A stretch of DNA of 64,000 nucleotides from a virus (IMGVR_UViG_3300014205_000170:1-64000), one strand, 5' to 3'. Positions 39,866-64,000 are shown, counted from the first letter of the stretch. Notes: generated by a model not told the origin, from the sequence alone. Numbers and translations: made by a program.

Positions 39866-40378
39866 TTAAGAAAGGAGACTTTTTCTTTGTGTATGTTTTT
39901 CTATTAATGTTAGTCTGACAGAGCGTCCGGTAACAATACTCATATTAGTAATCTCTTCCTGCGAATCTATTTGATGCATACGTAGACCATATAGCCCTTT
40001 AGAAACGTCAGGAACAAATCCTGTCCAAATAATATATTGTATCGGCTCGTCATAAAAGAAACAAAACTTTAACATGATTACACAAGTATCGCCACACATT
40101 CGCAAATGACATCCACCAATATAAGATAACGATTTTATATCTTCTTTTATAAGATATTCTTTTTCAAAATCTTCATGATTGTCATTTGTTTTATAATTAA
40201 CCAATTCTTTGTGTTGTGAAATTTTAAGTACCTTATATAACAAATGTTCAAAGACCGGCATCTCTTTATTTAATTCAACTACATTAAGAGGTTTAAATAA
40301 TCTAAAATCATGCTTATGTTTCGTATTAGATTTAAATCTTTCAAAGATTCGCCTTATGAAATTAAAGTATTGATACAC
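39866..40378 (-). CDS. Hypothetical protein with C-terminal EK motif
   Basis: RLTLIEK; TATCTTTG box upstream (40383-40390, -). Confidence 0.65.
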   Translation of the reverse strand: MYQYFNFIRRIFERFKSNTKHKHDFRLFKPLNVVELNKEMPVFEHLLYKVLKISQHKELVNYKTNDNHEDFEKEYLIKEDIKSLSYIGGCHLRMCGDTCVIMLKFCFFYDEPIQYIIWTGFVPDVSKGLYGLRMHQIDSQEEITNMSIVTGRSVRLTLIEKHTQRKSLLS

Positions 40379-40454
40379 ACTTCAAAGATATGAAAAACCC
40401 ACCAAAGATTTCTCTAAGATGGGTTTAAGTACACGGCCAAGAATATTTTAAAGC

Positions 40455-40548
40455 AAAAGGCCCACCGAAGTAAGTAGGGTCTGGAACACGAATCGTAGGA
40501 GCAAACAAACAATGCGGGAAACCCTGGTATACTATCTAGTGAGCCTTT
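40455..40548 (-). ncRNA. Candidate sRNA or 3' UTR structure complementary to the sigma gene leader
   Basis: AAAGGCTCAC/GTGGGCCTTT and AGGGTTT/AGACCCT stems (G-U pairs favour - strand) enclosing ATTGTTTGTTTGCTC. Confidence 0.5.
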
Positions 40549-40659
40549 CTATTATCTTTAACGAAAAACCTCAACCCAAAGTTACTGAGTTGAGGTGATT
40601 ATTTAAGTGAGTTTGTCTAACCAGTTGATATTCAAAAGAATAAAATTGTTAAGAACTTA

Positions 40660-41706
40660 TTATCCCTGCACGCAAACTAGCAAACCTTTGTGTTCTTCCA
40701 GATATGCTTTCATTTTCTTCTTTGCGCGATAAAGGTTTCCTTTCACAGTGCCTTCCGGAACGTTCAACGTTGCAGCAATGTCTTCATATGATTTATCTTC
40801 AATAAAACGCATTACAATCAAACGACGGCTGTTCTTATCAAGTCTAAGCAATGCTTTGTTTAAAGCAACAGTCTTATCGTTCTGTAAGATGATTTCTTCA
40901 CCATTCAACGAGTCTTCATCGCGAATAGATAGTTGAATTCCATTACCCTGGCCATTTAATAATTGTTGCCCATTATCAGATGTCAGATTACGGTCAATAG
41001 AAATCGTATTAAGTTTTCTTTTTCGAAGGTAATCAATAAAGAAGTTCTTCGCAATTTTTGTAATCCAACTGTTGAACGTATACGTTGGCTTGTATTCACC
41101 AATCTTTTCATATACTTTAATGAACAAGTCAGCTGTAAGGTCATCTGCTGCATCATCGTTAAACTGAAGATTCTTTGCATACATACGGTTAATAACCGGA
41201 TAGTAACGCTTATAAATTACAGCGAAAGCATTTATCTCACCGGCCATTATAGATTTAACTGCCTGGATGTCTTTTAAATCTTCACCAACGAACTTATCAC
41301 TATTACATGCATTCTCAATAGTTGCCAAAGATTCCTTGTTGAATTGTACAATCGTCTTAAGAGGTTTGATTGTTTCTACAACCACCGGTGTAGACATGTT
41401 TTTAATTTCTTCCGGATTCACAATTAATTTGCCACAACGGAATTCAATTTCACCAAACAATTCTTTAAGTTTTGTTTTATTACAATAAGCTCGTAATGTA
41501 GAATTAATAGAGAATTCTCTCGAATCAAGAATGTTAACCATTCTAATAGAAACATGTTTGTTTCCAGTATCCGATGGATAAATCCATTCGTTACCTTTGA
41601 TTTTTGCTTTCGTTAATGAAAACACACGAATAGAAATTTCTTTCTTCGTAGTAATACGACCAACTATCTGATAGAGTGGTGCTGATTTGATTTCTTTAAA
41701 ATTCAT
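40660..41706 (-). CDS. ECF (group 4) RNA polymerase sigma factor with N-terminal extension
   Basis: Sigma2 DLTADLFIKVY..FNSWITKIAKNFFIDYLRK; sigma4 SYEDIAATLNVPEGTVKGNLYRAKK. Confidence 0.92.
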   Translation of the reverse strand: MNFKEIKSAPLYQIVGRITTKKEISIRVFSLTKAKIKGNEWIYPSDTGNKHVSIRMVNILDSREFSINSTLRAYCNKTKLKELFGEIEFRCGKLIVNPEEIKNMSTPVVVETIKPLKTIVQFNKESLATIENACNSDKFVGEDLKDIQAVKSIMAGEINAFAVIYKRYYPVINRMYAKNLQFNDDAADDLTADLFIKVYEKIGEYKPTYTFNSWITKIAKNFFIDYLRKRKLNTISIDRNLTSDNGQQLLNGQGNGIQLSIRDEDSLNGEEIILQNDKTVALNKALLRLDKNSRRLIVMRFIEDKSYEDIAATLNVPEGTVKGNLYRAKKKMKAYLEEHKGLLVCVQG

Positions 41707-42314
41707 GTTCCTTTTTTTTTATATTGTTTGTTTGCTCACTAATTACTTTTTAATATTCGACTTCACCTATTGTAGCGTCATCAATGTCATCTTTTTTATC
41801 AAGATGTTCTTTGATTTCTTTCTTCACTTTAGCGCGACGTATTCCAGATGTATTTTTCTTTTCACCTTTTCCTACATGTGCACCCCATTCACCGTTAAGT
41901 CCGGCATTCTTTTTATTTCCTGGTCTGATTTTTCCCACGTTAGATTTTATTTGCTCCCAGATTTTTACGTAAAATTATACAAAGAGTTGACATTATCTAC
42001 TTTTTTCTGTGTTAAATCTGGTAACTAACTGGGTATCAATTTAATTGTTTTTACAGTTGCCTGCGTGCATTTAATCAACGGGCAAGTTTGTATAAGCAAA
42101 ATGTGTAACCCAATCTTTTGGTGCGCCAGTTACTCCTTCTATTAAGAAACTGTTAGCGAACCCATGAACATAGCGACCGAATCTCATTTGACCATCCTTG
42201 CAAAAAAGCAATAATTTATCACTTGCTCCTTGTATAAATGTCTCCTTTGCAGCTTTTGGAGATGCTGGAGGTAACACCACATTTTTGGTTACTTTAATCC
42301 AGTTAATTAGTTTT

Positions 42315-42779
42315 TTATTCATGGGATTTTACTTTTTCTATTAAAACATGTTTGGTATTTTCTTCAACAAATTTCATCATAAATTTATCTGGTGGTGTAA
42401 TACGTTTTAAACTCTTCGTATATACCTTTCTGTTGTCTACTGTGTATACAATACATCTATAAAATATTGTTGCAAGATTACCATCAATCCAACATCCTTT
42501 TTTTGATACAACTCTTTTCCAAGGACCATATCCATAAGTTGTCCCGCCGTAAGCTAAAACAACTGCTTGAGGAGCTTTAGATGTATCAATATATCTTACT
42601 CTACCATTTGGTGATGTCCTACCGGTATCTTTACAGTCCTTTACGCGAACAATCACAACATAATTCCATTCAACCGGATTGCCTTCATCATTTACATCGG
42701 TAGTTCCATTACCATCACGATAAGTAAACTCTCGTCTACGAGTACCTATTTGTTTTGTTTGTGTTACTCTTCGTATCAT
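42315..42779 (-). CDS. Hypothetical protein, EK motif (paralog of 42825)
   Basis: VLAY..GYGPWK; NTKHVLIEK. Confidence 0.75.
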   Translation of the reverse strand: MIRRVTQTKQIGTRRREFTYRDGNGTTDVNDEGNPVEWNYVVIVRVKDCKDTGRTSPNGRVRYIDTSKAPQAVVLAYGGTTYGYGPWKRVVSKKGCWIDGNLATIFYRCIVYTVDNRKVYTKSLKRITPPDKFMMKFVEENTKHVLIEKVKSHE

Positions 42780-42824
42780 GTGTGTTGTTTCTTAAGGTAC
42801 TATACGAAATAAAAAAGAAAGGTG

Positions 42825-43301
42825 TTACACTTCACCCGTTTCAAATTCCATATAAGATGGAACTTTGGTTTTAAATTTAACTTTTTCGGTTAACACAGTT
42901 TTTGTGTTTTCCATTTTTAAAATCTTTTGAAATGTATTTGGCTCATCAAGAACTCTGTGAACCTGGGTAATTACTTCACCATTATTTCCTAAAGAATAAA
43001 AATTTGATTGATAATATACGGTTGTATATTTATCTTTATAAATACTGTCTTTGTATTTAATGGGGGTTTTTAAGACAATTTTTTTCCAACGACCATATCC
43101 TGAATTTCTATCTTTATAAGCCAAAAAAACTACTTGTTGTTTAGTTTTCTTATCTATTATTACGATACACTCAGGATTGGTGATTATAGTATGAGCAAAA
43201 GATATATCAGAAATTAAATTGGCTTTTCTATAAGTTAAATTATTTCTTATAATAGGAAAGTCACAAAACCTTAATTCTTTTTCTTTTTTAGACTTGGTCA
43301 T
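42825..43301 (-). CDS. Hypothetical protein, EK motif (paralog of 42315)
   Basis: FLAY..GYGRWK; NTKTVLTEK. Confidence 0.75.
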   Translation of the reverse strand: MTKSKKEKELRFCDFPIIRNNLTYRKANLISDISFAHTIITNPECIVIIDKKTKQQVVFLAYKDRNSGYGRWKKIVLKTPIKYKDSIYKDKYTTVYYQSNFYSLGNNGEVITQVHRVLDEPNTFQKILKMENTKTVLTEKVKFKTKVPSYMEFETGEV

Positions 43302-44604: not shown

Positions 44605-45666
44605 TTAATCTTCTTCTTCAGAACCTTCCTTATAAATAAGTTGACTCGTCAAACACTCGCGAAAATCTACGTCATCTCTCTTTTCTTTAAAGGTTGGTTG
44701 GAAAATTGCTCCACCCAAATAAGCATAAAGATATCGAACCTCAACCACATCACCAATCGCCGGAATTTCTTTATTTGGAGGAATTGTACATTTACCCATG
44801 AATACGCGTTCCTTATTCTCATTTAACAATTCTAATCCAACACTCCTCTTACCTTTTGTAAAATCCTTTACTATAAAGCTTGCTTCTTTATAAAACTTAA
44901 ACTTCAAATGAGCGCCACCTGAGTTTGGTCGACCAGCAACATACTCACTATCCTTACGTTTAAAAACAATACCCTCAGCATTACGAGCTTTTAACTCATT
45001 ATACAACTTTCTCTTTTCAGAGGTAGTATAGGCGGTTTTTACTTTTTCAATTGAGTTGGTATGATTTAAAGACTCAAGTAACTTAAGTCTATGGTCTAAT
45101 CTATGTTCCTTTATACTTATTGTGTCCAAAAAAAGAACATCAAATACGTACAATTTATTACCAATAATTTCTCCATCAAGAGTACACTTGTTATATACAC
45201 AACCTTCAAAAGAATCTGGTAACTGTACTTCCTGGCCCTTTTTATTTAAACCCGTAATTTTTTCGTCCTTTGAAATAACCATACGACGCTGCCCATCAAA
45301 TTTCTCCTGAGCTACATAAGCATCATTTTGAATAAGACGCTCCACTTCAGACTCTTCAATAGAATTTAACAATTGAGGAAAAATCCCATGAGTCTTCTTT
45401 TCAGTAACTGCTGGGCCGGAAAATCCTGAACCTTTACCCTCCTTTTCAGCGTAACCCTTAGCCATCTTTTCCTTTACAAGCTTATCATATATCTTCAAAG
45501 CAGAAGCCTCATCAACCGGTTTAGGAGTTTTGGAACCACTCTGTAAAGCATTCCCAACTCGGCCATATTGAAAGTTAACCAAATAACCGGGCCCAGACTT
45601 TTCCATCTGAACATGATACTCCTTATCCGAGGAGCCTTCTTGAAAGTATAATGAGATTTTATTCAT
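44605..45666 (-). CDS. WGR-domain ATP-dependent DNA ligase
   Basis: SDKEY..QYGRVG (WGR); EKFDGQR, LDGE, FDVL, EGIVFK, KFK ligase motifs; OB-fold-like C-terminus. Confidence 0.88.
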   Translation of the reverse strand: MNKISLYFQEGSSDKEYHVQMEKSGPGYLVNFQYGRVGNALQSGSKTPKPVDEASALKIYDKLVKEKMAKGYAEKEGKGSGFSGPAVTEKKTHGIFPQLLNSIEESEVERLIQNDAYVAQEKFDGQRRMVISKDEKITGLNKKGQEVQLPDSFEGCVYNKCTLDGEIIGNKLYVFDVLFLDTISIKEHRLDHRLKLLESLNHTNSIEKVKTAYTTSEKRKLYNELKARNAEGIVFKRKDSEYVAGRPNSGGAHLKFKFYKEASFIVKDFTKGKRSVGLELLNENKERVFMGKCTIPPNKEIPAIGDVVEVRYLYAYLGGAIFQPTFKEKRDDVDFRECLTSQLIYKEGSEEED

Positions 45667-45728: not shown

Positions 45729-46100
45729 TTACCCTTCAACATCAACCATAACCGGAATTAAAGTACCATCCTCTAATTGGTCATGGAATTTGATTACTTC
45801 CAAAAGTAAAAGTTTATCCAAAGAAAGAATCGGAACATATTTTTCAATCAGGACTTTACGCTTCTGTTCTGCCAATTTTAATCTAAAAGTAAAAGTTTCA
45901 TAACCTACAACATCTTCAACCCATCTCCTGGTTCTATACATTCCATAGGTAGCAGAATCGCGAGTACACAAAGGATTCTTACAAATATCAAGCCTATGAG
46001 CTAATTTATAATCCACACCCTTCTGATAATTATGAATACCAACATAACACCTGAATTTTACAACCCATGCCTTAAATCTTATCTTTATACTTTTACTCAT
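45729..46100 (-). CDS. Hypothetical protein, EK motif
   Basis: RKVLIEK. Confidence 0.7.
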   Translation of the reverse strand: MSKSIKIRFKAWVVKFRCYVGIHNYQKGVDYKLAHRLDICKNPLCTRDSATYGMYRTRRWVEDVVGYETFTFRLKLAEQKRKVLIEKYVPILSLDKLLLLEVIKFHDQLEDGTLIPVMVDVEG

Positions 46101-46106: not shown

Positions 46107-46445
46107 CTATACGAAATTAAAACTCTTGGTGTTACACTTCTCAATTAGGATTTTACGGGTATTTTGCTCTAAATTCCACCACACCTTCTCATATTCATAT
46201 TTAGGAATCCAATCCAAAAGTTCACCTTTAAACCTGAGTTTTAATTGAGCTAAGGCAAACTGACCAGTAGAAAAACATTTAAACTTCTCTTCTTTATTTT
46301 TACTTACAGACTCAGTCATAAATTTATGATACCAATAAATATTTGACCAATGAGATTGTGTGACCATATGATATGGAATCCGATTGCCATCCGCAGTCAT
46401 CCAATCACCATATTGTAAGTCTGCTTCTGTAAAATATCTGACCAT
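46107..46445 (-). CDS. Hypothetical protein, EK motif
   Basis: RKILIEK. Confidence 0.7.
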   Translation of the reverse strand: MVRYFTEADLQYGDWMTADGNRIPYHMVTQSHWSNIYWYHKFMTESVSKNKEEKFKCFSTGQFALAQLKLRFKGELLDWIPKYEYEKVWWNLEQNTRKILIEKCNTKSFNFV

Positions 46446-46470: not shown

Positions 46471-46911
46471 TTACGTTGCAATGGTATTAGGGGTTCTAAT
46501 AACAAATACTCTATTTGTCCAAGCGTTGCAAATCATAGCAGAAAAATCGGTGGGGTCCATAAAAATGTGCACATCCAAATCTATTCTAAATTGTATCTCA
46601 TTTAAATGCTCATCATAAAAAACAACGTTCTTTGGAGCGTAAGAGTAATTATAATCCGAAACAGTAATTTGATAGTTCCTTAACTTTAATAATTTGGCTA
46701 ATATACATTTTGCGATAAAATCTGCCATCAAGTCATACCCACCAGGAGCATCTCGAAATAACTGATACCAGTATTTTTTTGAAATAGAATAAGGCTCATT
46801 ATAAGGAGAAAGTCCATAGCTCTTTTCTAAAATAACTTCTCTAGTTAAAAGTCCTTCCGGAGTATAATTTGAGCCGGAGTAACCGGTGCCTATGGTGATA
46901 AGTCGAGCCAT
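46471..46911 (-). CDS. Hypothetical protein, EK motif
   Basis: REVILEK; TAACTTTG box upstream. Confidence 0.7.
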   Translation of the reverse strand: MARLITIGTGYSGSNYTPEGLLTREVILEKSYGLSPYNEPYSISKKYWYQLFRDAPGGYDLMADFIAKCILAKLLKLRNYQITVSDYNYSYAPKNVVFYDEHLNEIQFRIDLDVHIFMDPTDFSAMICNAWTNRVFVIRTPNTIAT

Positions 46912-48991: not shown

Positions 48992-49678
48992 ATGGGAGTG
49001 GGTCGTAAAATAAAAACTAAAGAACTTTATGGAGCTTTACAAGATGATAATCTTCCCTTGTTGTCTGAGGCTTGTCATAGTATGTATGATTCCATTAAGT
49101 CTTTAAAAAATATAAAGAATAGACACTTAGAGACAAGTGTGTGTCCTCAAAAATCTGCTTGCCGTTTCTGTAAAACCATGTTTCTCCCTAAAGTAGAAAG
49201 TTATCATAGTGGGGTATCGGAATGTCCTAAATGTATTGAGAAAGCCGGTGGAGGATTTTACACCTTGGAGGTAAAAGCCTATATATATTTAAAAGGATAT
49301 GTGGAGGGAGAAACGGATATATACGGGGAGAACAATAATGTTCATGTGGAAACAAGATACTTATGGGTTCCATTCAATGTGTTTAAAACGAGTCATGTTT
49401 TAACGGAGAAGTTTAGTATCAAGATACACAAGAACAGTAATATTAAAATAATCTTTAATGAAGCTGTAAAAGCCTCAAAACTTACAAAGAGGTTTGATAA
49501 GATTCGTTTGTTGGAAATCTTAATAAGAGGAGAACGCGGAGAATTGGAGCCTTGGGAGTTTATATTTTCTAAAGAAGAGATACGTTGGACCTTATATATG
49601 GATAAAACAAGAATACGACCATTGGGGTTAGAACATGAAAAATTAAGCGTATGGAGGAGTGATGATAACAGAGATTGA
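48992..49678 (+). CDS. Zn-finger/EK-motif paralog family A
   Basis: CRFC..ECPKCIEKAGGGFY..WVPFN..HVLTEKFS. Confidence 0.8.
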   Translation: MGVGRKIKTKELYGALQDDNLPLLSEACHSMYDSIKSLKNIKNRHLETSVCPQKSACRFCKTMFLPKVESYHSGVSECPKCIEKAGGGFYTLEVKAYIYLKGYVEGETDIYGENNNVHVETRYLWVPFNVFKTSHVLTEKFSIKIHKNSNIKIIFNEAVKASKLTKRFDKIRLLEILIRGERGELEPWEFIFSKEEIRWTLYMDKTRIRPLGLEHEKLSVWRSDDNRD

Positions 49679-50141
49679 TACTTATCCTCCTGATGGATAT
49701 ACTCGCAGTGTAACTTGTAGATTTTGTCGTACTAAGTTCTTTGAGCATTTCACATATGATGAACGTATAAGTGAATGTGATGACTGTACAAACAAGGCTG
49801 GTGGTAAATTCCATATAGTAAACATTTATGCCAAGAATGAAAAGACTAAGATGTCTATTGATTCCTTTATGTGGGTATTTCATAGTATCTTATTGAATAG
49901 GCATGTACTTGTTGAGAAGTTTAGTAGAGACGCAGAAAGAAACTCTGTGGCTACAATAATAAAGAAAGAGGCTTTAAGGAGGTTTTCTACTGATGATGAA
50001 ACAAAGGATTATACCAGTAAAGATTGTCATATAGTTCACATAAGGTATTATGAGAAAAGGGCTATGGGGAATTTACGTCCGGTGAGTAATTGGGATTTTA
50101 TAATTAAGAAAGAACTTCTTGTGGAAGGTTATATGTTTTAA
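49659..50141 (+). CDS. Family A paralog
   Basis: CRFC..ECDDC..KAGG..RHVLVEKFS. Confidence 0.8.
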   Translation: MMITEIDTYPPDGYTRSVTCRFCRTKFFEHFTYDERISECDDCTNKAGGKFHIVNIYAKNEKTKMSIDSFMWVFHSILLNRHVLVEKFSRDAERNSVATIIKKEALRRFSTDDETKDYTSKDCHIVHIRYYEKRAMGNLRPVSNWDFIIKKELLVEGYMF

Positions 50142-50167: not shown

Positions 50168-50686
50168 ATGCATGTGTGCAATTCCCATTTAATTGATTAT
50201 AGTAAGATGAAACCAAAATTTTCAACTGCTTGGTGTAGGATATGTGAAACGACCTTTACTTATAATTCAGGTAAGAAACACTATCAATATAACATGTCTG
50301 AATGTGAAGAGTGTATAAAGGAAGCCGGAAATGGGTTTTATGCAGTAAGAGTAGGCATTCCAAAAGATGAAGATAAGGTATTTGGTGGTCTTCTTCGTTT
50401 TAAAACACTAAAGGTGCCATTTAAAGTATTATGGTATCAAAATGTATTAGTTGAAAAATACAGCAGTGAGCCTTCTAAGAATACATTATATAAACTCTTA
50501 TTCAAATACACCACAAAAGAGTTATTAAACTTAAAGAATAAAGACTATGTCTCAGAAGAAGAATTTAACAATAGAGAAGTAATAAGTGTCTTTATTGACC
50601 GGTCAGATTCTGGTTTTTTGGAAGACTTAAATGAATGGCATAGAAAAGAGAATAAAACAAAAGAAGAAAAGGAAATCATATTTTAA
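50168..50686 (+). CDS. Family A paralog
   Basis: CRIC..ECEEC..AGNGFY..NVLVEKYS. Confidence 0.8.
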   Translation: MHVCNSHLIDYSKMKPKFSTAWCRICETTFTYNSGKKHYQYNMSECEECIKEAGNGFYAVRVGIPKDEDKVFGGLLRFKTLKVPFKVLWYQNVLVEKYSSEPSKNTLYKLLFKYTTKELLNLKNKDYVSEEEFNNREVISVFIDRSDSGFLEDLNEWHRKENKTKEEKEIIF

Positions 50687-51156: not shown

Positions 51157-51480
51157 GTGGATAAAAGACCAGAAGGCATAGATTTTATAAAGGCCAATTT
51201 AAGCCAGATGCATAAGACACGAGTTGTTCTTACGGAAAAGGTTGGTTGTCCTAATGTTTTAATGACAGATGAAGAGATAAGTAAATTTTCAGAGTGGGTT
51301 AATACATTTGAAGAATATGCTCATTCTGGACCTTCTGTAAAACGTGTTATCTCATTTTGTAAAGCACATTATGGAGATAAGTTCAATAAATTGTTTGATG
51401 AGGAAGCTTTAAAAAAACTAAACGATAATTGGATGGAGATAGCTCTTTGGGAAATGGAACAAAATATAGCTTGCGATTAA
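51157..51480 (+). CDS. Hypothetical protein, EK motif
   Basis: RVVLTEK. Confidence 0.7.
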   Translation: MDKRPEGIDFIKANLSQMHKTRVVLTEKVGCPNVLMTDEEISKFSEWVNTFEEYAHSGPSVKRVISFCKAHYGDKFNKLFDEEALKKLNDNWMEIALWEMEQNIACD

Positions 51481-53926: not shown

Positions 53927-54460
53927 GTGGAACTTACAACAACGCAAATAATAGATTTAACCAAGCAAATTTCAACGCCTGAAAAACGTAGTTATAGAGC
54001 CGGTTGTCGTATGTGTGGACATATTTTTTATAACCCTATGGAATTCAGCATAGGTGAATGTCCAAAATGTATAGACAAAGCCGGAGGTTCGTTTATTGTT
54101 GTAAGGACAAATTATGGATTTTCCAATCTTAGTTTAAGAAATCGTACAAACAAAAGAGATTATTGGGTTCCGATAAACTTTACAAGAAGGCGTTATGTTT
54201 GTGTTGAAAAATATAGTGCCAAATTTACAAGTCTCTTATTAATTAAAATCTGCACAAAATATATTAAAGAAAAAATAGCGGGTAAAATTCTAGAAAACAG
54301 TTTACAGGAACAGTACTATAAAGGTATGAGTATTGAAATAGAAGATGTTTATATGGTAAAATACGATAACGAATATAAAGGACCATTTGAACTTTTGTTT
54401 AAACTTAGTGATGAAGAAATGGAAGAGACAAGATTTCATGTATCTAATATTAAAAATTAA
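53927..54460 (+). CDS. Family A paralog
   Basis: CRMC..ECPKCIDKAGG..WVP..RYVCVEKYS. Confidence 0.8.
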   Translation: MELTTTQIIDLTKQISTPEKRSYRAGCRMCGHIFYNPMEFSIGECPKCIDKAGGSFIVVRTNYGFSNLSLRNRTNKRDYWVPINFTRRRYVCVEKYSAKFTSLLLIKICTKYIKEKIAGKILENSLQEQYYKGMSIEIEDVYMVKYDNEYKGPFELLFKLSDEEMEETRFHVSNIKN

Positions 54461-54463: not shown

Positions 54464-54742
54464 ATGGGCTTACACTTATTAAATAAAGACACACAAGTAC
54501 TTGTTGAAAAAGCGCCATTCTTAATAGAAATAAAAAGAGGTGATTATATATTTTTTGATGTGTGGTACAAACACAATCAAGGACAGCATTTTATGGTTCG
54601 ACAATGTACGAGGGAAGATATAGCTGAAGTAAAAAACAGCCAAAATATAAGTCCTAAAGATTTATATATTGTATGTACTGATGGTAAAGGTTATAAAGCT
54701 GGTGCAGCAATTTATAAAAAACATTGTATAAAATTAAAATAA
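54464..54742 (+). CDS. Family B small protein, N-terminal EK motif
   Basis: QVLVEK..VWY..FMVRQC..YIV..C. Confidence 0.7.
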   Translation: MGLHLLNKDTQVLVEKAPFLIEIKRGDYIFFDVWYKHNQGQHFMVRQCTREDIAEVKNSQNISPKDLYIVCTDGKGYKAGAAIYKKHCIKLK

Positions 54743-55059: not shown

Positions 55060-55323
55060 ATGGATATAATTAAAAGAATAGTATTAATTGAAAAGTCTGA
55101 ATTCACAATTATGTCTAATGATGGAAGAAGATTTTGGGCAAGACAATGCAATAAGAAAGATTTAGAAAGAGCTCATGATGAATATGAAGAAGAATATAAA
55201 GAATACAAAGACAGACAAATATATAGACTTTCAAATAATCCGAGTGATTATTATGTTATTCTAGAAAGGAATGTATTTCTGGCTAACATAATCAGCGTAG
55301 ATATATGTGAACGAATAAAATGA
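55060..55323 (+). CDS. Family B small protein
   Basis: RIVLIEK..FWARQC..YYVI. Confidence 0.7.
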   Translation: MDIIKRIVLIEKSEFTIMSNDGRRFWARQCNKKDLERAHDEYEEEYKEYKDRQIYRLSNNPSDYYVILERNVFLANIISVDICERIK

Positions 55324-55688
55324 ATAGTAACGTAAAAATAGTATTAGTAGAGAAGAAACAAAGACCTATTTTGTTTGGTGGTCATAATTTGGATGAAAAA
55401 GAAGAATACAATTTAGAAGATGCTATTGTTATAATATCTAAACTTATAAACATTAATCGTGAAAAAGGTGGTAATATTGTGTATGTTTCAAATTACGCTT
55501 TAACCAAAGAGGTAATAAGTGTATTGATAAAAAACGGAGTTACGATGACAGAAAATTCTATTGGAGATGGTAAATACATTCACATAAGTAAGTTTAATAC
55601 AGATTGCAGAACTAAAGGATGTGTGTATAATGTTTATGGAAATTGCAAATGCAATGGTATTGGAACTGAGTGTAAAAGTTATAGTTAA
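55320..55688 (+). CDS. Family C protein (paralog of 59270)
   Basis: KIVLVEKK..PI..GG..EY; Cys-rich C-terminus. Confidence 0.75.
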   Translation: MNSNVKIVLVEKKQRPILFGGHNLDEKEEYNLEDAIVIISKLININREKGGNIVYVSNYALTKEVISVLIKNGVTMTENSIGDGKYIHISKFNTDCRTKGCVYNVYGNCKCNGIGTECKSYS

Positions 55689-55996
55689 TGGCTGTGGTTA
55701 TTCAATGTTCATATTGTGAAAATAGTTTTGTGTGGCTTTCAGAAACAAAGTGGATTGATGGCAAATTGGTACATAAACCTTTTTTAAGAGAATGCTTTGA
55801 TACTACGAATGCTTGCGCTGATTGTTCTGAATGTATTGAAAATGAAAAAACCGTTTTAATAGAGAAAAACCCTACTGAAAATGGTGTAATAAAAAGAAGA
55901 TATAATATTAAAATGAAATTAGCTGAATGTGGTTTTTATAAAGTTGTTGCAATGATTGAAAGAAAAAAAGAAATACGAAAATATATTAATGTATAA
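55688..55996 (+). CDS. Zn-binding protein, EK motif
   Basis: CSYC..CSEC; KTVLIEK. Confidence 0.7.
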   Translation: MAVVIQCSYCENSFVWLSETKWIDGKLVHKPFLRECFDTTNACADCSECIENEKTVLIEKNPTENGVIKRRYNIKMKLAECGFYKVVAMIERKKEIRKYINV

Positions 55997-56603
55997 CACC
56001 AGTAACATATCTACTAATTTCAAGGCTCAATTTGAGCCTTTAAAACGTTTTGTTGTGGAGGGTGGTAAAAACCTACAAAAATTTATAAATGTAAAGCGTG
56101 GCAAGATAGAACAAGAGCCTATATACTTTTCATCACATTGTCGTTTTTGTAAAACGTTGTTTAATGCTAATTCAATATATCGTTTAGGATTATCCCAGTG
56201 TGATACTTGTTATGATAATGCCGGAGGAGGATTTTATTTTATAAGAACAGAATACATTTTTAAGACCGTAGCAGGATACCGTACTGAGCAGAAGCTTTTT
56301 TGGATTCCGTACAATATATATAGAACGCGTTTTGTTCAAACGGAGAAGTACAGTCCAAAAATTTCAAAGAATTTCATTATTAAAACGACAATACAATATG
56401 TAAAATCAAAAGCAGAGGAAATAAACAGAGAAGATATTTTAAAAACACCAATGGAAATTGCCATTCAAGAGGTTTGTATGTTAGAAAAAGATGGTATATG
56501 TAAAACAATTATGATTTTTGATAAAATTGACTTTATAAAACATTCTGATTTGATGGTTGATATTTCTTCTCCCAAACGATATAGTAATCCTTTAAACGCA
56601 TGA
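55989..56603 (+). CDS. Family A paralog
   Basis: CRFC..QCDTC..AGGGFY..WIPYN..RFVQTEKYS. Confidence 0.8.
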   Translation: MYNTSNISTNFKAQFEPLKRFVVEGGKNLQKFINVKRGKIEQEPIYFSSHCRFCKTLFNANSIYRLGLSQCDTCYDNAGGGFYFIRTEYIFKTVAGYRTEQKLFWIPYNIYRTRFVQTEKYSPKISKNFIIKTTIQYVKSKAEEINREDILKTPMEIAIQEVCMLEKDGICKTIMIFDKIDFIKHSDLMVDISSPKRYSNPLNA

Positions 56604-57124
56604 GTTATTTATTGTTGCATTCAGACCCACATCTTGATTCTTTACCTAAAGAGATTGATTCGAACGTAGGTAAAACTTGGTGTCGCATATGTAATACTTT
56701 TTATAATAAACAAGGTTTTTTAAACAATAAAACAAGGGAAGGGTTTTATAATAAAGGAAGAATAGCAGAGTGTCCAAAATGCATCGAGAAAGCTGGTGGT
56801 GGATTTTATCTTGTAAGGATAATGAATCTTACTTCTGAAGGCTCTGTTAGTATAATGTATACTCCTTTTAATGTTTTGTGGAATAGAAATGTTTTGACAG
56901 AGAAGTTTAGTGCAAATGAACGTAAAAACACCGTATATAAGACAATATCTAAATACGGATTTAAGAAGTTATACAGTATATATCCGGACTTATATGATAG
57001 TATTCTTGAATTTCATCATATGGATGTATGTGTTGAATCACCTATAACAGGCTTTGTTTATTCTTTAAATGAGTGGCATTTTAGAAAATTAAAGACAGCT
57101 GAGGAATGGGCTATAAAGTTTTGA
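56600..57124 (+). CDS. Family A paralog
   Basis: CRIC..ECPKCIEKAGGGFY..RNVLTEKFS. Confidence 0.8.
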   Translation: MSYLLLHSDPHLDSLPKEIDSNVGKTWCRICNTFYNKQGFLNNKTREGFYNKGRIAECPKCIEKAGGGFYLVRIMNLTSEGSVSIMYTPFNVLWNRNVLTEKFSANERKNTVYKTISKYGFKKLYSIYPDLYDSILEFHHMDVCVESPITGFVYSLNEWHFRKLKTAEEWAIKF

Positions 57125-57125: not shown

Positions 57126-57440
57126 ATGAGTAGTGATTTAATAGTTAAAAAAAGCATATATAAAGAAGATAAAAGGATGGTCCTTATTGAAAAGACTGAG
57201 ATTCATTATTATGGAATGAGTCCAACAGGTGCTTGTATAGAACAGTGTGCTGTATATGAACGTGATGTTTGGATTGGAAGTTCATGGTGTATTCATTGCA
57301 AACACTCTTTAGGTTATAACAGTATTGATTCCTTTATTATGTGTAAAAAACTTTCGAGGGCTTTAGGAAAAACTGACCAAGATAAGTCCAAAGAAACCTA
57401 TATGGTCCCACATTCAATAAACCCTGATGAATTATTTTGA
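57126..57440 (+). CDS. Cys-rich protein, EK motif
   Basis: RMVLIEK; IGS..C..C. Confidence 0.7.
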   Translation: MSSDLIVKKSIYKEDKRMVLIEKTEIHYYGMSPTGACIEQCAVYERDVWIGSSWCIHCKHSLGYNSIDSFIMCKKLSRALGKTDQDKSKETYMVPHSINPDELF

Positions 57441-57790
57441 TGAGTATTACTAAAGGACATAAATATAGTTTTAGAGACTTTAATGATATGTGGGATAAAG
57501 CTGGTAATTTTGCTTATACCATTACTTTTCAAAATCTAAGAAAAGCTCATGAATTGGAGGAGCAATTATTAAAGCTTGGATACCAACGGTCAGCCTATAG
57601 TGCAATGATAAACTGGGGTGATGGTCGAAGAATACGGTTTTACTTAAGAGTTGCTCCAAGACAAAAATTTTTTTATAGAATAAACAAAAAAGAAATCACC
57701 AAGACATCGTATTTTAAAGATAGATATACTGAAGATTTCTTTGATAGTATTTGTTTTAAATTTATAATGATTGAAAAGAGTATAAAATAA
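57437..57790 (+). CDS. Family D protein (paralog of 58912)
   Basis: LL..GY..NW..G.R; CFKFIMIEK. Confidence 0.75.
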   Translation: MMSITKGHKYSFRDFNDMWDKAGNFAYTITFQNLRKAHELEEQLLKLGYQRSAYSAMINWGDGRRIRFYLRVAPRQKFFYRINKKEITKTSYFKDRYTEDFFDSICFKFIMIEKSIK

Positions 57791-58098
57791 TGACGTTGGA
57801 AAGCCTAGAGAGAATTGTTTTGTTTGAGAAGACACCTTATAAAGTTAAAATCAAAAGTAATATTGATTTTGGAGGATGGTGGTGCGAAAAGTATCAAGGA
57901 GAATTTTTTTATATAAAAGAAGCCTCTTTAGCAGAATTAATTGCAGCAGGTTATAATATACAGGCTTTCAATTCACTGAACATAAAAAACAATATGAATA
58001 TATATGATTATTTTTTAACTAATGAACCTAAGCAGCACCCAAAATTTGGTTTGGCTTTGCCTAAGAAATTTTGTACAACAATATCGGGAAGTAAATAA
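57790..58098 (+). CDS. Family B small protein
   Basis: RIVLFEK; IDFGGWWCE..QG..PKKFC. Confidence 0.75.
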   Translation: MTLESLERIVLFEKTPYKVKIKSNIDFGGWWCEKYQGEFFYIKEASLAELIAAGYNIQAFNSLNIKNNMNIYDYFLTNEPKQHPKFGLALPKKFCTTISGSK

Positions 58099-58407
58099 AT
58101 GTCAGAAGTTAAAGATGATATAAAAGAACAAATGTTTCCAACAACCAGAAGTGTTATATTTGAAAAACGAGTGGACACCATAAAAGTTAAAAGTCATATT
58201 GACTTCCAAGGTTGGTGGTGCGAGGAACATCAAGGACAAACATTTCAAGTAAGACACACAACCATTAAAGAACTAGAAGAATTTGGATTTGATACTAGAG
58301 AAATGTTAGATGAAGATGAAATATATGATGTATATCTAATTGTTGGACCAGAAGAGAAACATTGGGTTATACCTAAAAAATTTTGCATACCAGTATCAAG
58401 ATATTAA
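58099..58407 (+). CDS. Family B small protein (tandem paralog of 57790)
   Basis: RSVIFEK; IDFQGWWCE..QG..PKKFC. Confidence 0.75.
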   Translation: MSEVKDDIKEQMFPTTRSVIFEKRVDTIKVKSHIDFQGWWCEEHQGQTFQVRHTTIKELEEFGFDTREMLDEDEIYDVYLIVGPEEKHWVIPKKFCIPVSRY

Positions 58408-58911: not shown

Positions 58912-59286
58912 ATGAACAGGGTTGCACAACATAGAAATATAAACTTTCAACAGTTTACTAAAAAATGGAATTTAGCAGAAACTAAGCCTTTCACTGTTCA
59001 TTTTACTTGCAGAAACAGAGCTTTTAGTTTTGAGCACAAGCTATTAAATGAAGGATATGCGGAAATTGAAAGGGTGCAACATTTTAATTGGTATCATGGT
59101 TCAAGAAAAAATTATTATATAATTGTGTATTCTCAAAGTCGTGGTTATCTTAGAGCTGCTAAGTTTACATCAAAACATTCTAATATATACAACACATTAT
59201 TATCAGAAGAATTTTGTAGTAAATTTTGTTTTAGAGAAGTGATGATTGAAAAACGTAATAAAACACAGAATGAAAACAGATATTAG
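58912..59286 (+). CDS. Family D protein
   Basis: CFREVMIEK. Confidence 0.75.
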   Translation: MNRVAQHRNINFQQFTKKWNLAETKPFTVHFTCRNRAFSFEHKLLNEGYAEIERVQHFNWYHGSRKNYYIIVYSQSRGYLRAAKFTSKHSNIYNTLLSEEFCSKFCFREVMIEKRNKTQNENRY

Positions 59287-59713
59287 AATAGTGCTTTTTG
59301 AAAAGAAGGAAAAACCTATTACAGTTGGTGGTGCTCTTCCGGAAGAAAGAGTTGAATATAGTGTTGAAAGCGCTCTTCATATTTTGGCAACATGTATGAT
59401 AAGCAACAGAAGTCAAGGTCGTAATGAATATTTTATACCAAAAGAATTTTTAAATCAAACTTCTCTGAAACTTCTCCATCTTAATGGATATGATATTGTA
59501 GGAAGGCATCCAAACGGTATTAGTGTAGAAATAAGCAGATTTCAAAAACCTTGTAAAAAAGTTGATTGTATACATAATATAGTTGGTGTTTGTCAAGCAA
59601 AAGGAGTAAAACAAATATGTAATGCTTATAACCCTATGGAATTTTATGAAGTTACAATTAATGGACAAAAAGAAACAAGAGTGAAATTTAAATACAACCA
59701 TGAAAATACTTAA
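59270..59713 (+). CDS. Family C protein
   Basis: RIVLFEKK..PI..GG. Confidence 0.75.
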   Translation: MKTDIRIVLFEKKEKPITVGGALPEERVEYSVESALHILATCMISNRSQGRNEYFIPKEFLNQTSLKLLHLNGYDIVGRHPNGISVEISRFQKPCKKVDCIHNIVGVCQAKGVKQICNAYNPMEFYEVTINGQKETRVKFKYNHENT

Positions 59714-60053
59714 AAAAAATAAAATAATTGAGAAAGGTTCTAAAAAGATAGATACAGATAAAATTTTAGAAAAGATTGCCAAACAAATACAATTTCAGAA
59801 GCAACGAATGAAGGCTGAAGAAAATAGTTACGGACTCAGTAAAAACCAGCGAAAGAAACTGTATGAAAGTATAATAAGTAGTATTGGTAAAGTTACTAAG
59901 CTCCGAGAACAACTTGGTATTAAATCAGAAGAAAGTTCAATTTGTACTTATTATAAACACAAGCTTAAAAACGTGAATGAAGCCATAAAAAGGTCACAAA
60001 TTGTCGGAAAGAGAATTATATTACTTGAAAAAGTTTATAAGAATAAAATATAA
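59700..60053 (+). CDS. Basic helical protein, EK motif
   Basis: RIILLEK. Confidence 0.7.
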   Translation: MKILKKNKIIEKGSKKIDTDKILEKIAKQIQFQKQRMKAEENSYGLSKNQRKKLYESIISSIGKVTKLREQLGIKSEESSICTYYKHKLKNVNEAIKRSQIVGKRIILLEKVYKNKI

Positions 60054-60343
60054 AAACTATAAAAGTCTAATTAAAAAATAAGACATGGAACATTGGGAAT
60101 TGGAAGCTCAAAGGGCAAAAGAAAAAAAGGAACTACTAAGTAAGTTTCCTCATTTGGGCAAAAAAGCACGAAGAAAAGGAAGGGGAAATAAATGGGAGTA
60201 CGGTACAATCATACTTGATAAATTTAATGATGACACCGAAAATTATGAATTTATTAAATACGATGATGGCACTTCGGAACAATTAATGTGTCTTCCTTAT
60301 GAGATATGGGATGAACAAAAAGAAACCTGGGTTAATGGTTGGG

Positions 60344-60757
60344 ATGAAACAAATTAAGAATATAGCTATATCTGTTCGCGACTGGGCCGAAACATATGCT
60401 CAAGAAAACAATAAATTTCCTTCAGACCTTGAGGGTATGTGTGCTATATGCTCTGTGAAAATATTCAATCAACTTAAAGAATTTGGTTATTCACCGGTTC
60501 TTTGCATGAGTTATTATACTGAGAGTCAAAGAGATGGTGCTCATGTATTTATTATTGTGAATGGTTTATTGGTAGATGTTACGGCTACCCAGTTTTCGTT
60601 AAAACACCAGAAAGTCATTGTGCGTGAGAAACTTAAGAAAGAAGATGAGTGGTATTGGAGTAAATTTCATAAATTTAGAACTAGTAACGGATTGATTAAA
60701 AAACAACATAAAGATGGGTGGTCGATGCATCAAATTAAAACAACAGAGTTAGAGTAA
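60344..60757 (+). CDS. Putative papain/transglutaminase-like fold protein
   Basis: GMC..S, HVF, VDVTATQF could form a Cys-His-Asp triad. Confidence 0.5.
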   Translation: MKQIKNIAISVRDWAETYAQENNKFPSDLEGMCAICSVKIFNQLKEFGYSPVLCMSYYTESQRDGAHVFIIVNGLLVDVTATQFSLKHQKVIVREKLKKEDEWYWSKFHKFRTSNGLIKKQHKDGWSMHQIKTTELE

Positions 60758-61047
60758 TGGAAGTAATAACAAAAGCTGTATTGATTGAAAAGAGTCCTTT
60801 TTTTGTTTCTATTATTTTACGTAATAGTAATAAGGAAAAATTATTAGTAAGACCATGTGTAAGTGAAGATGATTTGCAAATAGCACGACAAGAATACAGG
60901 AACATGCAAGGTGTAGAATATAAAAATATTCTTTCATTCAATCCATCTCCATATTATCTTGTACTTAAGGGAGGTGCGTTTGTTGGTAATATTGTAAGTA
61001 AAAGCATATGTCAAAAAATAAAATATAACAATGCACATTCAGTATAA
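60757..61047 (+). CDS. Family B small protein
   Basis: KAVLIEK..VRPC..YYLV..C. Confidence 0.7.
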   Translation: MEVITKAVLIEKSPFFVSIILRNSNKEKLLVRPCVSEDDLQIARQEYRNMQGVEYKNILSFNPSPYYLVLKGGAFVGNIVSKSICQKIKYNNAHSV

Positions 61048-61438
61048 ACAAGAAATTTTTGTTGTAACTATTCCATCTGGAGATGAATATTTTACAAAAC
61101 TTTATATGGATGGTTTTAGTTTTGCTAGAGTAAACGGAGTGTGGAAACATTACACTGGCGGAAATTTGTCTGAGACAAACCCAATTGACAATGAAGAGTT
61201 TTGTAATGTACTTGAAGAAAGATTTCAAAATATACAAAAAAGATATATCATAATTGAGAAGGCTATTAATATTGCGACAGAATTATTTCCAACAGATATT
61301 GAAATTGAAGCGGAAGCAGAATCTCGGTATCCGGTAAATACACATATGACTCCGAATAATAGTCCTTATGTTGGAAGCAAGATAACTTTTACTCATGGGA
61401 TTAATTGGTTGAAACTCTACATGACAAACAAACAATAA
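61031..61438 (+). CDS. Hypothetical protein, EK motif
   Basis: RYIIIEK. Confidence 0.7.
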   Translation: MHIQYKQEIFVVTIPSGDEYFTKLYMDGFSFARVNGVWKHYTGGNLSETNPIDNEEFCNVLEERFQNIQKRYIIIEKAINIATELFPTDIEIEAEAESRYPVNTHMTPNNSPYVGSKITFTHGINWLKLYMTNKQ

Positions 61439-61439
61439 T

Positions 61440-61874
61440 ATGGATTTTGAATATATAAATGTAAATCAAATTTGTTCTTTGAAGGTAAGTACTTTTTCAA
61501 AAAGTAATTATTATGAATATAAAAAAACAAAAAAAACATTCTTTGGAAAAATGACAAAAGAAGGATTTTATGATTATGATGATTATTGCTCTGTTCAGCA
61601 AATTGAAGCTCGTGGAGAATACATTTGTAAAGGCGAAGAAGTATTTCTTAAACCATACATTGTTATTAGAATGAGCAATAACGACAATCATAAAAAAATT
61701 TTTCATACAAACGAGGAAATGTTTAAGTTTATATGGAATAGTCAACTTTCAACCCTTAAGTGGATTAATAAGAAGGATATACTAGAAAGCAGACAAGTAT
61801 TGTTGGAACTATATAAGGGTTATCCAGATGAATACCGGATACTTTCAAAAAGAACTTTAGAAACAAATTATTAA
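61440..61874 (+). CDS. Hypothetical protein
   Basis: RQVLLEL motif variant. Confidence 0.7.
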   Translation: MDFEYINVNQICSLKVSTFSKSNYYEYKKTKKTFFGKMTKEGFYDYDDYCSVQQIEARGEYICKGEEVFLKPYIVIRMSNNDNHKKIFHTNEEMFKFIWNSQLSTLKWINKKDILESRQVLLELYKGYPDEYRILSKRTLETNY

Positions 61875-62084
61875 AATTATGACATACTTAGGTGTTAAAT
61901 ATGAAATAATGTGTTATCTATTGTTACTTGTAACAGTAGATGATGTCAAAAAATGCATAACTCCTAAGTGCAATAATATGACTGGTATTATTGCTGTAAA
62001 TTTTTGTAAAAAATGTTATATTGATAAAAAGAAAAAACGTAATAAGTTAAGTAGATTTATAATTCTAGAAAAAACAACAGAAAA

Positions 62085-62378
62085 TTGTTAGAAGAAATTT
62101 CATATAGAGTAGTGTTGACAGAAAAGGTTGATAGAAACTTTTGGGTAGAACTTCTTGAAGAAGAAGTTGGACAAACTATTAATGGAAGAAGATTATATAC
62201 TTGGTATTCTAAATGTGAAATTGAGAGACACAATTCTAATAAATTTCAGTCAAAATACAAAGTAAAATTCGCATCAAATCACCAATATTTTTTAGTAGTA
62301 AATTTTGAAGATGTTAACTTATCTCCTAATCACGTTTATGGAATAGCATTTAACCATTGTAAAAGACTAGGATATTAA
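62085..62378 (+). CDS. Family B-like small protein
   Basis: RVVLTEK..WY..YKVK..C. Confidence 0.65.
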   Translation: MLEEISYRVVLTEKVDRNFWVELLEEEVGQTINGRRLYTWYSKCEIERHNSNKFQSKYKVKFASNHQYFLVVNFEDVNLSPNHVYGIAFNHCKRLGY

Positions 62379-62615
62379 AATGAGCATAAAAAACATAAGA
62401 ATGCCAATGACAGAGAAAAAAATGAATGTCATTTTGAGAGCACGTATAGAAAATAGAATTAAAGAACTAAAATCTGGTTTAAGAGATTATCAGGGATTTA
62501 ACGAAGATGGTAGTAGAAAAATACAATATATTTCTACTACATTTAGTGCTGGTGCTCATTCTTTTTGGAGAAGTGCCGCCGATAGAATTGAAGAATTAGA
62601 ACGATTATTAAGATA

Positions 62616-62963
62616 ATGAATAGAACGCTTAAAAACAAAGAATTTATTGCGCCAAATCCAGATTTAAATTCTCGTGATGTTTTGATTGAAAAGAATTTCT
62701 TAATTCGTATCAAAATTAATGAAGAGGATTTATTTATGAATGATGAGGTATGGTATTTTAGATTTGCGAATAAACGAATTTTAGTAAGATGTTCTACAAA
62801 CTCAGAGAGAGAAAGTATTAGAGTTAACATTAATGATTATGGTGATATGTTCGTAGACAGATGTAGGAAAAAAGGATTTTATGTAGTTGCAAATTATACT
62901 TGGGTCTACAATGGTTGTTTAATTGGAAAATGTGATACAGAAAAATTTAAAACAATTGGATAA
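62616..62963 (+). CDS. Family B small protein
   Basis: SRDVLIEKNF..VWYF..VRC. Confidence 0.75.
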   Translation: MNRTLKNKEFIAPNPDLNSRDVLIEKNFLIRIKINEEDLFMNDEVWYFRFANKRILVRCSTNSERESIRVNINDYGDMFVDRCRKKGFYVVANYTWVYNGCLIGKCDTEKFKTIG

Positions 62964-63387
62964 AAATAACACAAATATTCTTCAAAGAGTAATTTTATTT
63001 GAAAAAACTCAAAAATCATTAGTTACCTGGATTTCTGATTATGATAAAGGAACTATAGTTAAATCCATTGAAATGGGTGGTATGGGCGAAGGTTATGAAT
63101 TGGCAATACAAGAATGTTTAATTGAAATATTGAGAAGTTTACAACATTTAAAACCTTCAGAAGAACCTGAAAGTTTTACTGTTGAAGTAAAGGATGCAAC
63201 GAACAAAGCTGTTGCAAAATTAGATGAAACTTTTGGGTTTTCAGGAGCACAAGTTTCGGCAGCGCAAAGTCTTGCTTCTTTTATTTGGAGAAACACACTA
63301 GAAAAAGCATTTAAAGAAATTTCAGAAGAACGTATTATTAAAATTTTTAAGAGTAAAAATGGGACGGCTCGATTAATTAAAGAATAA
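62956..63387 (+). CDS. Hypothetical protein, N-terminal EK motif
   Basis: RVILFEK; SIEMGGMGEGYE; start uncertain. Confidence 0.65.
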   Translation: MDKNNTNILQRVILFEKTQKSLVTWISDYDKGTIVKSIEMGGMGEGYELAIQECLIEILRSLQHLKPSEEPESFTVEVKDATNKAVAKLDETFGFSGAQVSAAQSLASFIWRNTLEKAFKEISEERIIKIFKSKNGTARLIKE

Positions 63388-63388
63388 A

Positions 63389-63616
63389 ATGAGTATAGCA
63401 AAAATTAAAAGTATATTGATAGACAAAGGTTATTATTCAGATGACCATGCTATTTCAAGTAGATGTATAAGAGATATTATTTCTGCATATAAAAAAGTAG
63501 AAAGACAATCTATAAATAAAAAAGCGAAGAAGATAGCAATAGCTAATCTAGAAAGAACAAGAAATGTACTACTCGAAAAGAAAAATTTAAAAAAAGTACG
63601 TAAAAGAAAAACTTGA
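63389..63616 (+). CDS. Basic hypothetical protein, EK motif
   Basis: RNVLLEK. Confidence 0.65.
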   Translation: MSIAKIKSILIDKGYYSDDHAISSRCIRDIISAYKKVERQSINKKAKKIAIANLERTRNVLLEKKNLKKVRKRKT

Positions 63617-63726
63617 GACGAAGCGTAAAAAGGAACAAGAAGAGTTGAAAAAAAATATTACTCCAGCACAAAGAGAAGAATTTAAAAGAATTGCCGAACA
63701 AATGAAAGACACAAACAACACATAAC

Positions 63727-64000
63727 ATGCAAGATATTTTAAATACGCATTATGGTTCGAGAGATGTTTTGATTGAAAAGAATTTTATAATTAAAATAAT
63801 TCCTGCTGAATATGTAAGTCCTGATTTGGTATGGTATTTTAAATATATAAATGAGAAATTTAGTGTTAGACATGCTACAAAAAAAGAAAAGGAAGATATA
63901 ATTAATGATAGAAATTATTTTGGTATGTCATTTAGAGAAAGATGTAAACTTAATGGAATTTATGTGTCAACAAATGAATCTTGGATGCTTAATAAATGTT
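63727..64000 (+). CDS. Partial family B protein (paralog of 62616), absent from the ORF track
   Basis: MQDILNTHYGSRDVLIEKNFIIK..VWYF..; open to window end. Confidence 0.75.
   Translation, partial: MQDILNTHYGSRDVLIEKNFIIKIIPAEYVSPDLVWYFKYINEKFSVRHATKKEKEDIINDRNYFGMSFRERCKLNGIYVSTNESWMLNKC

Follow-up and report, generated by a model that had tools for sequence, protein, structure and literature searches.

The capsid targeting sequence (CTS) of phage T4, carried by the internal proteins IPI, IPII and IPIII, is N-terminal, is removed by cleavage and marks a few packaged proteins. It offers a parallel to the element reported here, a short peptide tag recurring between 39.8 and 64 kb of a 64,000-base stretch of viral DNA (IMGVR_UViG_3300014205_000170, bases 1-64000; the window), in that one short peptide is shared by diverse small proteins with counter-defence roles, putative ones in the present case, and has an I/L-x-E core linked to the gp21 protease. 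The tag differs in that it can stand anywhere in a protein, is found on about 200 proteins, mostly under non-late promoters, and has an invariant Lys at P1′. Adaptor systems are a second parallel: SspB and RcdA dock on ClpX, and viral F-box proteins on SCF, by combining a short docking motif with variable substrate domains, much as a variable bait would be joined to a common docking motif here, although there is no sequence relation and degradation is only proposed for the tagged proteins. We know of no virus-encoded pseudoprotease hub.

Two further comparisons concern what is tagged and what may read the tag. The phage protein DSAD1 blocks DSR2, a sensor of the tail tube (PMC11087589), and is a single protein with no shared label; here, mimics of six virion proteins, recognised from sequence alone, share the tag with about 190 others. 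Two carriers are clear members by Pfam of the Acb3 (PF25187) and Tad3 (PF25185) families, for neither of which is an added tag described in the literature found. T4 gp21 (5jbl) has the fold of an untagged candidate reader, and its I/L-x-E specificity matches the tag core. By analogy, the tag would work most like a CTS combined with DSAD1-type mimicry, although it departs from a CTS in position and timing. A literature search, not exhaustive, returned no description of such a tag, of tagged decoys or of a dead prohead protease; the labelling system is real, strongly selected and apparently undescribed, with a reader and a function that are candidates.

The window comprises bases 1-64000 of a virus record that is complete at 518,809 bp and has direct terminal repeats; the window's frame is continued in all genome coordinates below. 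Its source is an uncultured T4-type Bacteroidota megaphage of about 519 kb, with a gp23-type major capsid protein (MCP) at genome 355857 whose best GenBank match, from a Flavobacterium phage, is just 35% identical. A Shine-Dalgarno site stands before 4.5% of genes, and the GlnRS has its 80 best matches among genomes almost entirely in Bacteroidota, mostly Flavobacteriales (55-58%), which together point to a Bacteroidota bacterium as host.

A short peptide tag on diverse phage proteins

The tag follows the consensus [TKS]-R-x-V-[LI]-[IFTLV]-E-K. At 39.8-64 kb, 24 of the 45 called open reading frames (ORFs) contain the strict pattern, compared to 0.07 after shuffling, while none of the 71 called ORFs at 0-39.8 kb does; genome-wide the count is 141 of 747 called ORFs against 1.4 ± 1.2 shuffled. 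A position-specific scoring matrix (PSSM) trained on the same genome scores 186 real proteins at 12 or above, compared to 2.0 shuffled, and yields about 200 carriers among about 760 ORFs, with a median of 120 aa, none above 300 aa and nearly all with a single copy. The original prediction, which had described typically one tag per protein and next to none in the left arm, was thus borne out at 39.8-64 kb, but it had placed the tag in that region, and the carriers span the whole genome.

In a six-frame scan, 143 strict matches lay in frame in called genes and 20 elsewhere, most of the latter within real ORFs missed by the gene caller. Codons at the motif positions are near genome-wide usage, indicating that selection acts on the peptide, as had been proposed. 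A DNA-level repeat or recombination site was rejected: codons are not conserved, and the matches are in frame rather than between genes.

Information is restricted to seven or eight columns and is strict within them. In an unbiased count, the open position of R-x-V-L-x-?-K is Glu in 71/71 cases, with Asp in 0/71; after R-x-V-L-x-E the next residue is Lys in 71/73 and never Arg; and position 4 is Val in 0/121. Among 198 carriers, 88 (39 expected) bear the tag no more than 20 aa from the C-terminus, 52 (48 expected) no more than 25 aa from the start and 58 internally, so that all three placements in the original prediction occur, with a C-terminal bias that it had not included. With the motif masked, the 198 carriers fall into 162 BLAST families, in keeping with the claim that they are mostly unrelated. 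A single shared fold was rejected on these families and on the unrelated folds among carriers (capsid, tube, terminase, protease, Acb3, Tad3, PrsW). Six carriers look membrane-bound. A single-sequence AlphaFold2 model of ORF 55060 places the tag in a strand, at low confidence (pLDDT 56).

All 34 ORFs originally listed exist, 26 with the strict pattern and 8 with variants, and the PSSM score is at least 11.5 in 31. The sites located with the PSSM are listed below (window coordinates, strand, carrier, score where noted).

39896..39916, minus: borderline variant near the C-terminus, ORF 39866-40378 (170 aa), 11.5
42333..42353, minus: tag, ORF 42315-42779, 20
42882..42902, minus: tag, ORF 42825-43301 (paralogue of 42315)
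45840..45860, minus: tag, ORF 45729-46100, 21.9
46137..46157, minus: tag, ORF 46107-46445, 20.1
46822..46842, minus: tag, ORF 46471-46911, 19.5
49391..49411, plus: tag, ORF 48992-49678
49899..49919, plus: tag, ORF 49659-50141
50438..50458, plus: weak variant, ORF 50168-50686 (paralogue of a tagged family), 8.5
51220..51240, plus: tag, ORF 51157-51480, 22.2
54191..54211, plus: variant, ORF 53927-54460
54491..54511, plus: weak variant, ORF 54464-54742 (paralogue of 57790/58099/63727), 5.2
55075..55095, plus: N-terminal tag, ORF 55060-55323, 22.6
55335..55355, plus: N-terminal tag, ORF 55320-55688
55847..55867, plus: tag, ORF 55688-55996
56328..56348, plus: variant, ORF 55956-56603
56885..56905, plus: tag, ORF 56600-57124
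57174..57194, plus: tag, ORF 57126-57440
57758..57778, plus: C-terminal tag, ORF 57437-57790
57811..57831, plus: N-terminal tag, ORF 57790-58098
58147..58167, plus: tag, ORF 58099-58407
59233..59253, plus: C-terminal tag, ORF 58912-59286
59285..59305, plus: N-terminal tag, ORF 59246-59713
60012..60032, plus: C-terminal tag, ORF 59700-60053
60772..60792, plus: N-terminal tag, ORF 60757-61047
61241..61261, plus: tag, ORF 61031-61438
62053..62073, plus: C-terminal tag, ORF 61879-62091
62106..62126, plus: N-terminal tag, ORF 62085-62378
62398..62418, plus: borderline variant, ORF 62380-62616, 12.9
62673..62693, plus: tag, ORF 62616-62963
62986..63006, plus: tag, ORF 62923-63387
63560..63580, plus: tag, ORF 63389-63616
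63760..63780, plus: tag, ORF from 63727 to just beyond the window end

The low-scoring tags of 50168 and 54464 are probably real, since both proteins are paralogues of tagged families, while the match in 51735 (440 aa, PSSM 6) is probably due to chance. ORFs 48992, 49659, 50168, 53927, 55956 and 56600 form a Cys-rich paralogue family. Searches of the in-window carriers against Pfam, PHROGs, PDB and the ESM Atlas gave no useful match. Some 170 more carriers are encoded beyond the window, as are the virion mimics and the candidate reader.

Retention of the tag in relatives and its replacement in a sister phage

The tag is present in relatives with 89-90% MCP identity and in further syntenic contigs (ENA, Logan, JGI). 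Of 33 pairs of homologues compared, 24 have it at an unchanged position, 4 at a shifted one and 5 apparently not at all, but none of these five pairs true orthologues: two involve the real tube gene, two involve orthologues of an untagged paralogue and one involves a split fragment. True orthologue pairs retain the tag in 28/28, sometimes doubled. Orthologue identity is 84% at key tag residues, compared to 41% elsewhere, while in distant phages most homologues lack the tag or the extension bearing it, which marks the tag as a portable and strongly selected element. De novo searches of the relatives G001, G003, G004 and G005, of which G004 and G005 are incomplete, yielded no tag.

G002, a 388-kb sister phage (MCP 67%), shows no enrichment of this tag. 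In its place, about 30 small proteins, including MCP fragments, a tube paralogue, a terminase copy and a sheath fragment, bear M-R-K-x-F-Y at the N-terminus (38 matches vs 4.8 expected). This second tag has a near-invariant Lys and no Glu. Because the same baits bear another label in G002, the tag is an address particular to the lineage rather than a piece of the bait folds. The MRKxFY loci of G002 (L425-L444) include 168541-170264, 222859-229146 and 371573-373442; no MRKxFY-like tag was found in G003, G004 or G005.

The families, the orthologues and this swap give good support to the portable linear address of the original prediction, and it is likely that the tag is a docking label read by one shared phage partner; parts of the mechanism proposed with it are disfavoured, as discussed below.

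Virion mimics and anti-defence homologues among the carriers

The carriers whose nature could be recognised (genome coordinates) include mimics of virion proteins and two homologues of anti-defence proteins.

432124-432528, plus: MCP fragment (MCP 18-107), two tags
469916-470308, minus: MCP fragment (MCP 274-346), two tags
308534-308767, minus: MCP fragment (MCP 439-506), tagged
261867-262433, plus: tail-tube paralogue, tagged
367880-368494, minus: tail-tube paralogue, tagged
472490-473170, minus: terminase ATPase copy with degenerate Walker B, tagged
291960-292424, minus: prohead-protease fragment, tagged
290801-291124, minus: portal fragment (weak match), tagged
432529: sheath N-terminal fragment, tagged, assigned by orthology to G002
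302212: fibre repeat, tagged
341232-342056, plus: Acb3 homologue (PF25187; Pfam 128 bits, cut-off 27), tagged
268856-269506, minus: Tad3 homologue (PF25185; Pfam 95 bits, cut-off 27), tagged

The mimics retain conserved stretches of virion proteins, and their likeness to sensed virion proteins is confirmed. The capsid fragment of 432124 is retained in eleven related proteins, nine of them with two tags, and aligns weakly (E 0.12) to T4 gp23 residues 96-127, which we take to be the Gol region. Terminase is sensed by Avs1-3. Lit is switched on by the Gol peptide (PMC12926258), Avs families sense MCP, portal and tail tube (10.64898/2026.01.04.697583), DSR2 is triggered by the tail tube (PMC11087589), CBASS (cyclic-oligonucleotide-based antiphage signalling) senses the prohead protease (10.64898/2026.03.04.709575) and ThsB is bound by Tad3 (PMC13728456). 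As the mimicked virion classes are mostly immune-sensed, and Acb3 and Tad3 stand beside them, the identifiable carriers, about 11 of 200, resemble baits for immune proteins, or inhibitors of them. We lean towards the view that the carriers as a whole form an anti-defence repertoire in which many bodies are baits or inhibitors of host immune proteins.

With one label on a quarter of the phage proteins, about 200 orphan genes become a defined candidate counter-defence set, and the tag can be used for mining relatives. Tagged, truncated mimics would offer a direct answer, testable in laboratory strains, to the question of how phages keep capsid, tube, portal and terminase proteins, which are essential and conserved, hidden from pattern-recognition sensors.

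Virion mimics occur across the phage family. In G003, MCP-derived pieces at 16446 and 73409 (L445, L448) have no detectable tag, and one of them seems to be joined to a deaminase-like N-terminus. At genome 155926 (plus strand; L005), a homologue of the PrsW family of membrane metalloproteases has an internal tag that is absent from its tagless relatives.

Promoter classes and head loading

The tag-free left arm has a separate promoter class, GTGTAAC-N19-TCGTATAGTAC, recognised from intergenic motifs. About 40 copies of the motif (GTGTAAC-N~19-TCGTATAGTAC) precede left-arm genes (upstream regions, window 548-44605) and are probably read by a phage sigma factor; an ECF-type sigma gene lies at window 40660-41706 (minus strand). 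A late class, CTATTTAT, is found upstream of head and tail genes, and further classes are the Bacteroidota host type, TAnnTTTG, and a fourth motif. As sorted by our own crude regular expressions, tagged genes comprise 2 phage-sigma, 7 late, 60 host-type, 12 fourth-class and 126 unassigned, compared to 61, 54, 107, 50 and 158, respectively, for small untagged genes (p 4e-13), which leaves 9/207 tagged genes under late and phage-sigma promoters together. The apparent avoidance of the late class by tagged genes argues against head packaging.

Amphipathic N-terminal leaders that end in phi-L-x-E form a family of their own; several lie under the late promoter, and they are probably the true head-targeting signal.

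Genes with head-type leaders: genome 146592, 164808, 165649, 179342, 402935, 431058, 431577, 442709, 451862, 510016, 510411

These data bear on T4-style head loading, the most probable alternative, in which the tag would direct its carriers to the core of the prohead, cleavage after Glu would fall to the active prohead protease (358997) and the proteins would be ejected at infection as counter-defence. T4 internal proteins are indeed diverse, defence-countering and share just a capsid targeting sequence (PMC3012670), the tag contains I/L-x-E, and tag and leaders have a common register, R-x-phi-phi-x-E, which is partly built into the selection pattern. Yet the leader family is separate and Lys is absent from its listed P1′ residues, the late promoter drives only 7 tagged compared to 54 small untagged genes, and the same protease is present in G002, whose tag lacks Glu. 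Together with free position, the 58 internal sites, the membrane carriers and the invariant P1′ Lys, this disfavours the plain capsid packaging or maturation cleavage of the original prediction, and we consider head loading improbable.

A dead gp21-fold protein as candidate reader

The docking-label explanation calls for a phage partner, for which our candidate, named by its genome coordinate, is 270303.

Genome 270303-270773, minus: candidate reader, untagged

Its AlphaFold2 model (pLDDT 85.7) has T4 gp21 (5jbl) as best Foldseek match (E 2e-4, probability 1.0), while the CDHP, SSRG and FDFV motifs of the active protease 358997, which hold the catalytic His, Ser and Asp, are replaced across a 53-row family alignment. 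It further differs from gp21 in a shorter N-terminus, in an acidic loop gained relative to 358997, in a disordered tail ending in Ala and in a host-type promoter, as found for the carriers. The terminal Ala is present in 31/53 family members, compared to 3.7% of genome ORFs, and suggests, speculatively, recognition by a protease that reads C-termini. Identity among the closest 25 homologues is 66-81%, and 270303 is the sole untagged one of nine small virion mimics (Fisher p 9e-4). The gp21 preference for I/L-x-E (10.64898/2026.03.04.709575) matches the V-L-x-E core of the tag. The pointer to gp21 in the original prediction thus holds in an altered sense, since our best candidate for the reader has the gp21 fold but is dead, whereas the cleavage site that it had envisaged is disfavoured.

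The family tree of 270303 has two supported clades, with tags in 5/5 sampled loci of the large clade. In the outgroup, which also has 270303, G001 and G009 bear degenerate tags in the corresponding position of the portal fragment, and the gene was not found in G002-G005, genomes without enrichment of this tag, nor did it match among GenBank phages. Complex prediction with the dead-protease alignment and a 34-residue tagged tail (ORF 63389, residues 42-75) gave a score of 0.02 with controls that did not fold, which speaks neither for nor against binding.

Overall, we tentatively propose that the tag, as a short and extended docking label, assigns many non-late accessory proteins to one phage partner as its clients. 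Bait bodies would mimic immune-sensed virion proteins, joined by the Acb3 and Tad3 homologues as inhibitors; 270303, a possible reader for which the odds fall somewhat short of even, would grip V-L-x-E in the manner of a substrate and not cut it, its acidic loop meeting the Arg and Lys of the tag. Reader and tagged baits would then gather bound immune sensors and hold them inactive. From binding through anti-defence activity to every later step we infer this sequence of events, whereas the tag itself and the bait-plus-tag anatomy are solid, as are the selection on the tag, the nature of about 11 clients, the fold and lost catalytic residues of 270303 and its co-occurrence with the tag. In an alternative end step, which is unlikely, the captured sensors would be passed to a host protease through the disordered, Ala-ending tail of the reader and degraded. 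In its widest form, this would be a modular neutralisation system in which about 200 interchangeable baits, decoys of most immune-sensed virion proteins among them, plug by a seven-residue tag into a dead head protease, sequestering immune proteins or feeding them to a host protease, while sister lineages rebuild the kit with another tag and reader; we hold this full picture to be rather unlikely. If true, a tag-reading pseudoprotease hub would be a new kind of viral adaptor.

Several points weigh against this proposal. Reader and tag co-occur through one evolutionary transition and not by independent co-evolution, and this pattern is drawn in part from the incomplete G004 and G005. One outgroup locus (L465) has the 270303 gene yet no tag in 20 kb, and 270303 cannot be the general reader because G002 runs a tag system without it; it could itself be another decoy, for instance against protease-sensing CBASS. 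About 95% of clients, including every carrier in the window, have no assigned function, so that the anti-defence reading comes from about 11 proteins, and some carriers are enzyme-like (PrsW; a match to 8-oxoG glycosylase). The crude promoter classes, with 126 carriers unassigned, weaken the argument from timing.

Further alternative explanations

Only a little less probable than head loading, and likewise doubtful, is direct reading of the tag, as a degron, by an AAA+ protease of the host (Clp, Lon or FtsH) or of the phage (ClpC 173917 or the AAA+/M41 protein 484139), which would clear early proteins and bound sensors before assembly. Both phage enzymes are encoded, persisting virion mimics would disturb the assembly of the phage itself, and the tag is biased to the C-terminus; yet an invariant Glu-Lys with many internal sites is unlike typical degrons, ClpC homologues without the N-terminal domain lie in 80 loci that are nearly tag-free, and a relative with no tag (L281) likewise has a member of the AAA+/M41 family. 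As clade-specific hubs, too, both enzymes are unsupported, being present in tagless relatives.

The gene at genome 484139-486160 (plus strand) encodes a soluble AAA+ domain joined to a zinc peptidase of the M41 (FtsH-type) class whose HExxH is intact, from a large family on viral-looking contigs. The one at 173917-175938 (minus strand) encodes a ClpC-like ATPase without N-terminal domain, near a DnaJ gene; such proteins are common in jumbo phages.

The retention of conserved virion-protein stretches in the mimics, and their spread across the phage family, would also fit poisons against competitors, with dominant-negative capsid, tube and terminase pieces kept off the phage's own assembly line by the tag. 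This offers no reason for Acb3, Tad3 and some 190 further proteins to be tagged, and we give it a slim chance.

Slimmer still is the prospect that a phage enzyme covalently modifies or conjugates the invariant Lys. The choice of Lys after R-x-V-L-x-E (71/73, never Arg) and the near-invariant Lys of the G002 tag would suit it, but a tight binding pocket accounts for the same strictness, and the partly annotated genome yielded no writer enzyme linked to the tag clade.

Docking of clients on host GroEL, with the tag copying GroEL strand 36-42, is very improbable. In its favour, Bacteroidota GroEL reads R-N-V-[VI]-[IL]-[ED]-K in 28/32 sequences, and no phage chaperonin was found in the genome. Against it, Val at position 4 (0/121) and Asp for Glu (0/71), both common in GroEL, never occur in the tag, the sister tag is unrelated and the site of the strand is filled in the assembled ring; moreover, the pattern occurs 7-41 times in the DNA of each host genome, so that one match is expected. 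In that host-genome scan, whose hits were mapped to genes in part, no single conserved host protein stood out.

Equally remote is homotypic assembly, in which tags would self-pair (antiparallel Arg-Glu register, amyloid-like core) and clients co-aggregate with no hub: the core favours beta structure and has complementary charges, and swaps across a whole genome would follow from a self-code, but the absolute choice of Glu over Asp and Lys over Arg suggests a pocket, and the G002 tag is not self-complementary.

Other genes and elements in the window

Two untagged genes lie amid the tagged ones: a WGR domain fused to an ATP-dependent ligase, whose lack of a tag agrees with the original prediction, and a bestrophin-family channel. 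The M28-like paralogues listed below, so described by eye, both match one G002 gene, and the RNA elements are ARAGORN calls.

1856-2719, plus: M28-type zinc peptidase look
34432-35484, plus: paralogue of 1856-2719
44605-45666, minus: WGR domain and ATP-dependent ligase
53050-53910, plus: bestrophin-family channel
17780-18274: doubtful tmRNA
4818-4892, 17799-17873 and 37497-37586: tRNA-like elements with abnormal anticodon loops

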